From a virus (taxonomy: Duplodnaviria > Heunggongvirae > Uroviricota > Caudoviricetes): a DNA stretch of 10,038 nt. Made by a program: the position numbers and the translations under genes. Positions 1 to 10,038 of this stretch are shown piece by piece. The stretch lies in IMG/VR virus record IMGVR_UViG_2711768004_000011; one strand, given 5' to 3'. Numbering within the stretch: position 1 is the stretch's first letter; every line of letters starts with the position of its first letter. The notes beneath the pieces are model-generated. The model saw only the letters and a list, made by a program, of their open reading frames with translations. It ran no database searches and was not told the origin of the DNA.

Positions 1-103
1 GGGACGGAAGTCGCTGTCGTTCTCAAAATCGGTGGAGCTGCATGACAAAGTCATCGGGCATTATCTGAACATAAAACACTATCAATAAGTTGGAGTCATT
101 ACC
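1..103 (+). mobile_element. IS1 right-end fragment (3' end of insB plus terminal inverted repeat); element continues past the left window edge
   Basis: Bases 1-103 match the 3' end of IS1 as I recall it. Frame 2 translates to ...[28 protein letters not shown] with stop at 86-88 (InsB C-terminus). The terminal repeat ATCAATAAGTTGGAGTCATTACC ends at 103. Confidence 0.8.
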
Positions 104-235
104 AAACGGTTGAAATGTATGCCGCTACTTACGGGTCCTGTAATCCTCTGAATAAACCAGAGGGAAAAGATGATTTCGACAAAATTTACCGCTTCTTGGA
201 GGACCGCTATATCAAAAGCTTAGAGGACGCAGGGA

Positions 236-613
236 TCAAATCCCCAGTGAAGTCACCATTGTCCTGAGAACTTGCAGAACGTCATGATCATAACTTCCAT
301 CCAAACCGCGACGGCGAATTGCTTCTCGTATTACCGGAAGCAGTTCGCTGGAAATCTCGGTGCATATTTCACCTGATAATACGCTTGGCTCAAGTGAGAA
401 TATTGGTGAACTTACGGTCTTGGTCTCGACAGTTTCAGAGTCAGTGCCAACATTATAAAGCTCAACGAAAGCGGTCTTGATTTTCCGGGCCAGATCTTTT
501 GCTGGCTCGCTTGCAATATCTTTCCCGATTTCTCGCAGCACAGAATGCAATGTATGAGCTGCTGTTTTCTGTACATCAGACGGTAAATCTTTAAATTCCA
601 TCGTCAGCCTCAT
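236..613 (-). CDS. hypothetical small phage protein (early-left operon); likely true start at internal ATG (601) preceded by GAGG
   Basis: 125-aa ORF on the minus strand. The internal start MEFKDLPSDVQ... has GAGG 6 nt upstream. The ORF-track start at 613 overlaps the upstream gene's stop (TGATG). No family recognised from sequence alone. Confidence 0.5.
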   Translation of the reverse strand: MRLTMEFKDLPSDVQKTAAHTLHSVLREIGKDIASEPAKDLARKIKTAFVELYNVGTDSETVETKTVSSPIFSLEPSVLSGEICTEISSELLPVIREAIRRRGLDGSYDHDVLQVLRTMVTSLGI

Positions 614-819
614 CAGTCAGTGTTTCTGGCTAACCAGCAACGCGCGCCAGATTCGGTTTTAAACGTTTTGCTTTTGGTATACGTCATGGCGGTAAACGTT
701 CCATCCTGGTTAGGGAACACGCCGCACACCAGAGATTCGTTGTTGCCAAGATCGATAGTATCCATGCTGACCTCATTTCCCCTTAACGCCGGGGTGGCGG
801 AACAAAAAACCTGCTGCAT
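613..819 (-). CDS. hypothetical small phage protein; alternative start at 765 (MDTIDLG...) with GAGG-N5-ATG
   Basis: 68-aa minus-strand ORF lying between the operator-like region and the 125-aa gene. The internal ATG (plus-strand 763-765) has a good Shine-Dalgarno. Preferred over the antisense plus-strand ORF 620-832 because of the RBS and same-strand operon context. Confidence 0.4.
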   Translation of the reverse strand: MQQVFCSATPALRGNEVSMDTIDLGNNESLVCGVFPNQDGTFTAMTYTKSKTFKTESGARCWLARNTD

Positions 820-6884: not shown

Positions 6885-8717
6885 ATGGCCCGCATGTTTG
6901 ATACATTAGGATTTTACATTATGAATGTGCAACATTTTGATTTTTTTACAGATAATGAGTTTTCTAATCTGGAAAGATATCAAACTTGTAAAGCCATGGC
7001 CAAAGGTTATGCGGGCAATTACAAAACCGGGCAGTCAAGGTTGATGCATGCCCGCTCATACTGCTTCAGCATCGTAGCTGCATATTGGGATACCCTTGCA
7101 AAAAAGCAAAAAAGCAGCATTAAAATGAGGGCAGTACCGCACACTGTTTACATAGAAGACATTCCATGTGATGCACGCGAGCTCGCTGAACGAACAGGTG
7201 AGCTTATTGCTCAATTTCCGGCGGAGGACGCTGGATATCTGATTGGGTCAATTTATACGGTAATGCTGCCATCCGCTTACCGTTCGGAATTGGGGGCTTA
7301 CTATACCCCCCCACCTTTGGTAGCGCGTCTCTTGGACCTGGCTGAAAAGTCTGGTGTTGATTTTTCTCATGCATCGGTTATTGATCCTGCGTGTGGTGGC
7401 GGTGCATTTTTGGCACCAGTAGCCATTCGAATGTTAAAAAAAGACAAGGGGTCTTCCCCTGAATGGATGTTGAGGAGAATCAGTCGTCGTTTAAAGGGGA
7501 TAGAGATCGATCCATTTGCGGCTTGGATGAGTTTGGTATTGCTCGAATCTGTACTAATGCCACTATGTGTAAAGGTAAAACGTAGATTGCCTGAAGATAC
7601 AATTATTGTTGCTGATGCGCTTCAGCAAGATAAATTTTCTGGTTATGATCTTGTGGTAGGGAATCCGCCTTACGGACGTGTCACTCTCGATATTAAAACG
7701 AGAGAAAAATATTCTCGTTCGTTATTTGGTCATGCAAATCTATATGGATTGTTCACCGACTTAGCTGTTCGCATGGTTAAAGAGAAAACAGGAGTTATTG
7801 CATTTCTTACGCCAACTTCTTTTCTTGGTGGGCAGTATTTCACCGCGCTGCGAACCCTTTTGACCGAAAAAACTACTCCGTATGCCCTTGATTTCGTCAC
7901 TGACAGGGATGGGGTCTTTGACGATGTTCTCCAGGAAACAATGTTGACAGCATTCAAGGCGGGAGAACATAAAGTTCGGGCCCAGGTATCCTCACTTGTC
8001 CCTAAGGGGTTGAACAAAGCAAAAATTGAGAAAATAGGTAATGTTGATATAGAAAAAGGTGGAGCAACGTGGCTTTTGCCACGCGTTAAAGATGATGCCT
8101 GTTTTCTTAATGTATTAAAACAGATGTCTACGCGTTTAGCTGATCTGGGATACTCAGTCTCTACAGGTCAGTTAGTCTGGAATCGATTTAAGTCGCAGTT
8201 GCGTACGACGAAAGGAAAAAATAGCTACCCATTAGTCTGGGCGGAATCAATAACTTCAGCTGGTTTTCGTTTTAGTGCAGACAGAAAAAATCATGTTCCC
8301 TATATCGATATAACCCCACAACAGGGTTTCCTTGTGACAAAATCTGAATGTGTGCTTGTTCAGCGGACAACATCGAAGGAACAGGACAGAAGGATTTTAG
8401 CGGCAATTTTACCTCAGGGATTTATAGATGAAACTGGTGGCGTAGTAGTTGAAAACCATATTAATATTGTATATTCAAACGGATTGTTCTCTGCGGTTCG
8501 CCCTGATGTTATTGATATGCTACTTAATTCGCATGTTGTCGATCGGGCGTTCAGGTGTATAAGCGGAAGTGTTGCTGTTTCGGCCTATGAATTGAATTCA
8601 ATCCCGTTGCCTTCTCTGGAGCAGGTGATGGAGATTCAATCGTTAATTGATGCTGGCGTCCACAGACGGATTATTGAGAGAACTATCGCTGGTTTCTATG
8701 GAGTGATGATTGCATGA
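6885..8717 (+). CDS. gamma-class N6-adenine (amino) DNA methyltransferase, TaqI/Eco57I-like, with C-terminal target-recognition region; start may be ATG 6921
   Basis: Motif X-like GAYYTPPPLVARLL (~7297-7335), motif I VIDPACGGGAFL (~7383-7412) and motif IV VVGNPPYGRV (~7656-7682) occur in gamma-class order. They align with M.TaqI (ETPPEVV / LEPACAHGPFL / LGNPPYG) as I recall it. GC content is markedly lower than in the phage replication genes. Confidence 0.85.
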   Translation: MARMFDTLGFYIMNVQHFDFFTDNEFSNLERYQTCKAMAKGYAGNYKTGQSRLMHARSYCFSIVAAYWDTLAKKQKSSIKMRAVPHTVYIEDIPCDARELAERTGELIAQFPAEDAGYLIGSIYTVMLPSAYRSELGAYYTPPPLVARLLDLAEKSGVDFSHASVIDPACGGGAFLAPVAIRMLKKDKGSSPEWMLRRISRRLKGIEIDPFAAWMSLVLLESVLMPLCVKVKRRLPEDTIIVADALQQDKFSGYDLVVGNPPYGRVTLDIKTREKYSRSLFGHANLYGLFTDLAVRMVKEKTGVIAFLTPTSFLGGQYFTALRTLLTEKTTPYALDFVTDRDGVFDDVLQETMLTAFKAGEHKVRAQVSSLVPKGLNKAKIEKIGNVDIEKGGATWLLPRVKDDACFLNVLKQMSTRLADLGYSVSTGQLVWNRFKSQLRTTKGKNSYPLVWAESITSAGFRFSADRKNHVPYIDITPQQGFLVTKSECVLVQRTTSKEQDRRILAAILPQGFIDETGGVVVENHINIVYSNGLFSAVRPDVIDMLLNSHVVDRAFRCISGSVAVSAYELNSIPLPSLEQVMEIQSLIDAGVHRRIIERTIAGFYGVMIA

Positions 8718-9796
8718 ATCTGCCTGTTGTTCCCCCATTGAATGTTATCCGGGAAAGATTACAATTAATTTTCCCTGAAGGGACTGAGAATCGTGGATAT
8801 TTAATTCGGGAAATAGCTGCAAAAACAATTTTTGTCATGTTTTATGCTGGTGCGGTTGAGGGGCTGGGGCGATGGATAAGGCCCAGCCAGGTTGTAAGTA
8901 TGGGAGATTCGCAGGCTGCTCTTACTGATGATGCGTCCAGAGAAAGCTGGGTAAAGATGACTTTCTCTAAACAAAAGATAAGGCCTGCTGATGCATGGTA
9001 TGCGGAAAATACGCGTGAGCCAATACGTGATGAAACTATAAAAAATGGCCTAATACCTTGCAATGCAATTGTTGAGCGTAAAGGTATACCCACCACATCC
9101 TCTCGTCCTCGTTACAGTTTGAATCGCTCTTTTGCAGCACTCTTTGATGCCGGGCTTGAAGGAGATTCGCTGCTGAGTGCAATAAGTTCCTGGCAAGAAA
9201 ATCATTTGAACAAAGCCGCTCTTGCTAGGTTGCGTTTATTGAAATCAGGGGCAGTGATTGCTGCTGATGCCGTAGTCGTCACTTTCCCAAATGGAGAGAA
9301 GAGAACTTTAGCTCCGGGCCCGTCAAGTACAATAGCTAAGGCCGTCATCGAAGTTTTTGCTCCTAATTTTCTTAAGAATCCAACTGTGCTCTGGTTGTCT
9401 GAATCCGGGAATAAAGTTGTTGCTCAGGATGATGTATTGGCAAAAGCATTGGGGCTGAATATTGATGCCTCAAAAGCACTTCCAGATATTATTTTGATTG
9501 ATTTGGGAGAGGACCGAACGGGTTCGGACATGCTTGTAGTTTTCACTGAAGTAGTTGCGACAGATGGGCCTATAAACAGGGAACGAAAAGTTACTCTCAC
9601 TCATTTGGCTATTGACGCTGGGTTCAGCGAGAAAAATCTTGCATTCCTTACGGCATTTATGGACAGAAGTGCTCTGCCTTTTAAAAAGGCAATACCAGAA
9701 TTGGCGTGGGGATCTTATGCATGGTTTGCTTCTGAACCGGAGCACTTAATTGATCTTCGGGATGGTTATCCGGTAAAGATCAGCCAGAGAAAATGA
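8714..9796 (+). CDS. partner of the methyltransferase: putative restriction endonuclease (possibly BsuBI/PstI-like); function not established
   Basis: 360-aa ORF whose ATG overlaps the MTase stop (ATGA at 8714-8717), with the same low-GC composition. A possible degenerate nuclease core lies at ALPDIILIDLGEDRTGSDMLVVFTEVVATDG. The family assignment is from weak recall, not a search. Confidence 0.5.
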   Translation: MNLPVVPPLNVIRERLQLIFPEGTENRGYLIREIAAKTIFVMFYAGAVEGLGRWIRPSQVVSMGDSQAALTDDASRESWVKMTFSKQKIRPADAWYAENTREPIRDETIKNGLIPCNAIVERKGIPTTSSRPRYSLNRSFAALFDAGLEGDSLLSAISSWQENHLNKAALARLRLLKSGAVIAADAVVVTFPNGEKRTLAPGPSSTIAKAVIEVFAPNFLKNPTVLWLSESGNKVVAQDDVLAKALGLNIDASKALPDIILIDLGEDRTGSDMLVVFTEVVATDGPINRERKVTLTHLAIDAGFSEKNLAFLTAFMDRSALPFKKAIPELAWGSYAWFASEPEHLIDLRDGYPVKISQRK

Positions 9797-9948
9797 CCAA
9801 AGTTTGATATCCGCCACGCCCTGAAGGATGGGGGTTTTACGGTGCACTGGATAAAAAATCGGTTTCATAGATTTGCCCACCGTGGTATACGCCTGCGATA
9901 AAAACTTTATTGTCATCAACGGCAAAAGCAATAATTGTTCTGTGGCGG

Positions 9949-10038
9949 GGTGATGCTGCCAACTTACTGATTTAGTGTATGATGGTGTTTTTGAGGTGCT
10001 CCAGTGGCTTCTGTTTCTATCAGCTGTCCCTCCTGTTC
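9949..10038 (+). mobile_element. IS1 left-end fragment (IRL and start of element); continues beyond the right window edge
   Basis: GGTGATGCTGCCAACTTACTGATTTAGTGTATGATGGTGTTTTTGAGGTGCTCCAGTGGCTTCTGTTTCTATCAGCTGTCCCTCCTGTTC matches the IS1 left terminus as I recall it. It is in the same orientation as the fragment at 1-103. Confidence 0.85.

Follow-up and report, generated by a model that had tools for sequence, protein, structure and literature searches.

Tn9, which is 2.6 kb long, consists of two direct copies of the insertion sequence (IS) IS1 around a non-IS segment, and in the r-determinant of R100/NR1 direct IS1 repeats could excise the segment between them. In Shigella, IS-mediated decay involves many IS1 copies, which are found either as simple insertions with 8–9-bp duplications or at the junctions of deletions and rearrangements; the sites are polymorphic among strains, and short-read assemblies are broken there (Hawkey et al. 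2020, PMC7373316, on the expansion of IS1 in S. sonnei). The subject of this report is a stretch of 10,038 nucleotides from a Caudoviricetes record, IMG/VR IMGVR_UViG_2711768004_000011, referred to below as the window, which begins inside one IS1 and ends inside another. The original prediction, made from the window alone, was of a Tn9-like composite arrangement. The evidence from complete chromosomes points elsewhere: the window is very probably the surviving middle of a decayed lambda-like prophage at the Qin site of Shigella sonnei, delimited by two independent IS1 events, and an instance of ordinary IS-driven decay. It does not differ in kind from the decay described in Shigella generally; what is added is one locus followed junction by junction.

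Genomes were found by exact-protein look-up with the restriction enzyme encoded at 8714–9796 and with a 121-residue open reading frame (ORF) at 236–601. Fifteen distinct complete chromosomes of 4.8–5.0 Mb hold the DNA between the two IS1 copies, here called the block, at 99.9–100% identity. One of these, CP000038.1, is S. sonnei Ss046, a reference chromosome that already shows the arrangement; this is ordinary, documented biology with nothing new in kind.

The window opens with the last 103 bp of the left IS1, designated IS1-b (1–103, + strand), a 100% match to the end of the full 768-bp element in complete S. sonnei chromosomes. Translation from the first letters gives the InsB C-terminus (2–85), which reads ...HYLNIKHYQ* with its stop codon at 86–88, and this piece is closed by the right inverted repeat, ATCAATAAGTTGGAGTCATTACC (81–103). 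At the other end are the first 90 bp of a second copy, IS1-c (9949–10038, + strand), again matching the start of the 768-bp element at 100%. It opens with the left inverted repeat, GGTGATGCTGCCAACTTACTGAT (9949–9971), and extends just into insA, whose GTG start codon is at 10004. Both pieces lie on the same strand, and the copies are therefore in direct orientation. The original prediction had these ends, their lengths and their strand exactly right.

The window shows the ends only; the whole copies are seen in the chromosomes, where full-length IS1 elements of 767–769 bp, all on the + strand, lie at exactly the window's junctions in all 15. These are the 768-bp copies for which the original prediction had advised a search. 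They have the length of about 768 bp and the imperfect terminal inverted repeats of about 23 bp expected of IS1, together with the insA and insB' frames, in which the Zn_ribbon_InsA, HTH_Tnp_IS1 and DDE_Tnp_IS1 Pfam domains were called. The two flanking copies are 99.7–100% identical to each other. An 8–9-bp target-site duplication is present at IS1-b (AAACGGTTG) and at a third copy further left, IS1-a (AACCGGAAA), and is absent at IS1-c, which is what a deletion or recombination would leave. The window is thus bracketed by two real, full-length, direct IS1 copies, and these are more than the overhang of a contig.

The same chromosomes bear on a purely technical explanation, that the IS1 ends are repeat overhangs left by the assembler and that the block has no two complete IS1 copies around it. 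The window does end inside IS1 on both sides, and it contains a gap of 502 N, features that would be expected of an assembly artefact. It is very probably a short-read contig or scaffold, and its ends fall there because a 768-bp repeat that occurs some 165 times in a genome defeats short-read assembly; as had been predicted from the IS1 ends, the locus is fragmented, and in thousands of assemblies, the majority of those with these proteins, the block is on a contig of 5–10 kb. Complete 768-bp copies at exactly these junctions in closed chromosomes make this explanation highly improbable. The run of N (4087–4588, no strand assigned), which is probably a scaffold gap or mask, lies inside a DnaC/IstB-like gene at a place where relatives have 167 bp. 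A search for repeats around 3800–5200 that might account for the 335-bp difference in length found nothing, and the difference is the run itself. Two ORFs in the mechanically made list, 3990–4604 and 4079–5071, read through the N and were discarded as artefacts. Since 502 N stand in place of 167 bp, the true distance between the IS1 copies is 9,509 bp and not the 9,845 bp of the window; the figure of 9.8 kb first given for this spacing is correct for the window and too long for the chromosome.

For the left copy the history is clear. In 7 of the 15 chromosomes (L006, L009, L010, L015, L017, L020 and L021) the junctions read TATTTTTGATAAAACGGTTG / IS1 / AAACGGTTGAAATG, where the 9 bp of the target, AAACGGTTG, are duplicated without a mismatch. 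The right-hand copy of this duplication occupies window positions 104–112 (no strand assigned), and the same 9 bp stand directly to the left of IS1 in those seven chromosomes. The uninterrupted target, TTTTTGATAAAACGGTTGAAATG, is found in phage mEp460_ev081 within a 66-residue early-left ORF. The 3' remainder of this ORF, which IS1-b splits, lies at 104–267 (+) by alignment to L002 2964–3164; the ORF is also intact in Escherichia coli 720632 (L024 5795–5995). Phage DNA goes on leftward past IS1-b. This copy is accordingly a simple insertion, with a 9-bp duplication, into a phage gene. An IS1 with its own duplication inside contiguous phage DNA is the arrangement that the original prediction had set down as speaking against a composite element, and for this copy it is the arrangement found.

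The right copy is of another kind. Its inner flank, TTCTGTGGCGG, lies within a gene for a toxin of the relE/parE family, of which the window retains the last 36 or so codons as a 3' fragment (9837–9948, – strand). The intact gene in E. coli FDAARGOS_943 (L001 13721–14032), to which the fragment was aligned, is followed by genes for the ParD antitoxin, DUF968, RusA, Q, lysis and terminase. The 5' part of the toxin gene is absent from the block, as is the ParD gene, which lies on the deleted side. On the outer side the DNA, CATATAACAAAACATATAG, belongs to the chromosome: it corresponds to a point in the ydfJ–ydfI spacer of K-12 that is 48 bp upstream of ydfI, and the alignment with K-12 then runs on colinearly over some 7 kb (98.6% identity). 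In all 15 chromosomes IS1-c joins the toxin gene directly to the DNA upstream of ydfI without a target duplication, which shows that about half of the prophage, including ParD, the nin region, Q, lysis and structural genes, has been deleted together with ydfJ and that the endpoint of the deletion is exactly at IS1. The proposal that IS1 accounts for the missing flanking phage genes therefore holds in that the late genes were lost by an IS1-associated deletion; they are not simply on another contig.

The junction at IS1-c could have arisen by either of two routes. IS1 in the toxin gene may have generated an adjacent deletion. Alternatively, it may have recombined with a second IS1 inserted in the AT-rich ydfJ–ydfI spacer, in which case the ancestral alleles would have been one copy inside the relE/parE toxin gene, flanked by the duplication CTGTGGCGG, and another in the spacer, flanked by CATATAACA. 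IS1 has entered the spacer (K-12, L013 at about 6915–7002) repeatedly. An independent copy in E. coli 720632 (L024 27422–28189), 96.5% identical and flanked by the 8-bp duplication ACAAAACA, stands 6 bp away from the S. sonnei junction, and 13 E. coli genomes in all have an IS1 near the ydfI junction, placed either within ydfJ or within the spacer.

A draft contig (AAWETE010000076.1) gives a further view of this end. Compared over 3921–9944, it is 100% identical to the window from 4589 to 9944; to the left of the N run the identity falls to 93%, then to 79%, after which the sequences are unrelated, and the contig has a different immunity region that lacks PaaA2-ParE2. The comparison places a likely phage mosaic breakpoint of this contig at about the masked stretch 4087–4588. 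Its end falls 4 bp short of the right IS1 junction, a sign that the same IS1 insertion may be present in another prophage background.

The position and order of the genes that remain identify the block as part of a resident prophage. In K-12 Qin, and in the prophage at the same site in E. coli 720632, the late end faces ydfJ and the integrase end faces ynfE/F. The order in E. coli 720632 is int...exo...dicB...small ORF...immunity...Q...lysis...ydfJ–IS1–ydfI. In S. sonnei the block lies between ydfI and ynfF in the order and orientation of that prophage, beside ydfJ–ydfI as in Qin and with its late end toward ydfJ. The lambdoid succession of early-left genes, divergent repressor and cro, and replication genes, normally followed by nin, Q and late genes, is kept in S. 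sonnei up to the late part, which is missing. Compared with Qin and with CP-933P/Sp12 of O157:H7, what is left in S. sonnei is shorter, with IS1 cutting it off on either side and a restriction–modification (R-M) system of the PstI family placed after the replication genes.

These features decide against a Tn9-like unit, in which two IS1 copies and a 9.5-kb cargo would have arrived together as one active mobile element. The likeness to Tn9 and other IS1 composites is that of a direct IS1 pair, here two intact and nearly identical copies, around a non-IS segment. Beyond this the resemblance ends. At about 11 kb the S. sonnei unit is far longer than Tn9. In the 15 chromosomes the outer flanks show no single duplication around the whole of it, with AAACGGTTG (or ynfF' ...GGGTCG) on the left and CATATAACA on the right. 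The 8–9-bp duplications for which the outer ends were to be searched thus exist in part, as IS1-b has its own and the two outer ends share none. The cargo is not foreign to its surroundings: phage DNA lies beyond IS1-b, and the gene order runs on into that of the prophage and chromosome on either side, as it does in other prophages of the Qin site. The block is at one and the same chromosomal locus in 15 of 15 chromosomes, and no other site, plasmid or phage was found for it in the records searched. Against phage and plasmid records the whole block gave only mosaic partial matches with coverage of at most 30%, and no record had 80% or more. Among complete E. coli genome records none covers the greater part of the window, and neither junction occurs in any of 5,426 complete E. 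coli genomes. An exact scan for the 42-mer at the right junction in the contigs of species-representative genomes, a collection without this lineage, gave no match. The arrival of the block as a composite transposon is, on this evidence, extremely improbable, and that part of the original prediction is not upheld.

The reading as a decayed Qin-site prophage has its own weak points. A species name is tied to a citable source for CP000038.1 only, and size, identity and IS load are the grounds on which the remaining chromosomes are taken to be S. sonnei. The window stops inside both IS1 copies, and the outer flanks of this isolate are transferred from near-identical chromosomes. The genomes were sampled through the block's own proteins, and those that had lost the block could not appear. 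Finally, the history of IS1-c may be one of adjacent deletion or of IS1 × IS1 recombination, and both routes fit the data.

Variation at the left flank (L004, L014–L022) among the 15 chromosomes indicates how such IS1 copies have acted on the locus. IS1-a, the third direct copy, lies 1.24 kb to the left of IS1-b. The fullest arrangement, in CP026802.1 (L021), runs from the dicB side through IS1-a (AACCGGAAA), a 1.24-kb rha fragment and IS1-b to the block and IS1-c. Seven chromosomes keep the rha fragment and IS1-b's own duplication; in three of these (L015, L017 and L020) a truncated ynfF replaces the left flank of IS1-a, which would be explained by deletion leftward from IS1-a reaching into ynfF. 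Another seven, including Ss046, have a hybrid left flank, with a single IS1 that has ynfF' on its left and AAACGGTTG on its right, as would result from recombination between IS1-a and IS1-b. The same recombination in another background would account for the one remaining chromosome, CP032523.1 (L004), in which a single IS1 has the dicB-side flank AACCGGAAA on its left and AAACGGTTG on its right. These hybrid junctions show that IS1-a × IS1-b recombination has removed the 1.24-kb rha fragment in two backgrounds, which together make up about half of the chromosomes sampled. As a side observation, this polymorphism may serve as a lineage marker.

Recombination between neighboring direct copies raises the question of whether the block itself could leave in the same way, as in the R100/NR1 r-determinant. 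Crossing over between IS1-b and IS1-c would give a circle with one IS1, which might then be lost, amplified or re-inserted at another IS1. The comparable event between IS1-a and IS1-b, which has occurred at least twice at the locus, speaks for an excisable or amplifiable unit of this type. In contrast to the r-determinant, the block is chromosomal, carries addiction modules in place of resistance genes, and was seen elsewhere, circular or amplified in no genome, plasmid or phage record searched. No product of IS1-b × IS1-c recombination was seen in the sampled genomes, all of which were found through block proteins. Loss of the block, moreover, would be expected to be counter-selected by its intact restriction enzyme and by its ParE2-type toxin–antitoxin (TA) system, which is addictive in CP-933P (PMC8630535). 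We consider an excisable unit very unlikely. The suggestion that IS1–IS1 recombination could delete or invert the block is right in kind for deletion, which is seen between IS1-a and IS1-b; inversion between IS1-b and IS1-c is rejected on principle, as direct repeats lead to deletion or excision.

The presence of two direct IS1 copies some 10 kb apart needs no special explanation. Across 4.99 Mb, S. sonnei 53G contains 165 copies of IS1 (PMC7373316, S1 Table), which gives a mean spacing of about 30 kb. By a Poisson estimate about 27% of the intervals between IS1 copies would be 9.5 kb or less, and with half of these in direct orientation about 20 such brackets would be expected per genome. A direct-IS1 bracket of about 10 kb is no statistical surprise in S. 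sonnei. The segment from ydfI to dgcZ (8.2 kb), which holds ordinary chromosomal genes, is likewise bracketed by direct IS1 copies. The fourth direct IS1 seen here (L003 20226–20994, + strand), 8.2 kb to the right of the block, has no duplication and joins the dgcZ–mgtT region to a gene for a glycosyl hydrolase of family 1; it is probably another rearrangement junction.

Within the block, the genes next to the ORF split by IS1-b are on the – strand. The 121-residue hypothetical phage protein used in the look-up (236–601, –) belongs to no Pfam family, and is followed by a DUF1391 protein (613–819, –; Pfam PF07151, E 3e-28). Next are a ParE2-like toxin (1046–1336, –; Pfam ParE_toxin, E 2e-17; PDB 5cw7_B, E 7e-37), a PaaA2-like antitoxin (1336–1530, –; Pfam PaaA2, E 3e-23; PDB 3zbe/5cw7, E 1e-23) and, in the position of cI, a PaaR2-like helix-turn-helix regulator (1550–2080, –; Pfam HTH_3), the start codon of which is uncertain, with relatives called at 145–166 residues. 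Divergent from these are an 87-residue YdaS/Cro-like regulator (2162–2425, +), assigned from a weak HTH_3 match and from gene calls in relatives, and YdaT, a CII-like regulator (2422–2847, +; Pfam YdaT_toxin; PDB 3c4r, E 4e-79, and 8bt1, E 3e-70). By homology, the putative PaaR2-PaaA2-ParE2 module has its helix-turn-helix regulator, PaaA2 and ParE in one predicted operon divergent from ydaS–ydaT. The same gene order as at 1046–2847 is found in the paaR2-paaA2-parE2 / ydaS-ydaT organization of CP-933P of O157:H7 (PMC8630535). In the literature ydaS and ydaT are analogues of Cro and CII and do not form a TA pair. The immunity region and the TA system proposed for the window are both present, as one module and not as two.

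The replication genes follow on the + strand. A phage replisome organizer (2913–3983, +) is O-like by the annotation of its FDAARGOS_943 homologue and has no Pfam match. The DnaC/IstB-like helicase-loader gene (3990–5071, +; Pfam IstB_IS21), which encodes 248 residues in relatives, is the one interrupted by the N run. Beyond it are a DUF1627 (YdaW-like) protein (5093–5818, +; Pfam PF07789, E 4e-93), a DUF977 protein (5834–6256, +; Pfam PF06163, E 3e-30) and a hypothetical protein of 118–137 residues, possibly a zinc ribbon (6257–6670, +).

Downstream of the replication genes is the R-M pair (6885–9796), whose two genes overlap and are both intact. The first encodes an N6-adenine DNA methyltransferase of the BsuBI/PstI type II kind (6885–8717, +; Pfam Eco57I and N6_Mtase; annotated in the HsdM family in L001), and the second a 360-residue restriction endonuclease of the BsuBI/PstI family (8714–9796, +; Pfam BsuBI_PstI_RE, E 9e-45; N-terminal domain, E 1e-30). 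The methyltransferase had been proposed to have a partner, and this partner is the restriction enzyme. From its family the pair is predicted to recognize CTGCAG. A CTGCAG R-M system of Stx phages belongs to the same BsuBI/PstI family (PMC3893438), a likeness at the level of the family only.

This gene content invites a more far-reaching idea. The block would loop out through its direct IS1 copies as a circle of about 10.3 kb with one IS1, the O-like and DnaC-like genes, the cro/cII-like regulators, the TA system and the R-M system, and would behave as a self-stabilizing replicon or translocatable unit of the lambda-dv type, able to re-enter at any of the roughly 165 IS1 copies. In a milder version, the block survives since its two addiction modules kill the cells that delete it. 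The one observation found in favor of either version is the survival of the block between repeatedly deleted flanks, and we regard the idea as very improbable. In-place decay of a Qin-site prophage is the reading that we retain.

The practical consequence is that contigs ending in IS1 are not to be read as composite transposons without their outer flanks. The locus is an example of how IS1 insertion, adjacent deletion and IS1–IS1 recombination whittle down a prophage in S. sonnei, and beyond annotation it carries little weight. The TA system of CP-933P is addictive and has been proposed to limit rearrangements (PMC8630535). Here a TA system has been retained, along with a PstI-family R-M system that is intact, between flanks that have been repeatedly deleted, and this fits the published idea that modules of the kind shield segments of a prophage against rearrangement (PMC8630535).

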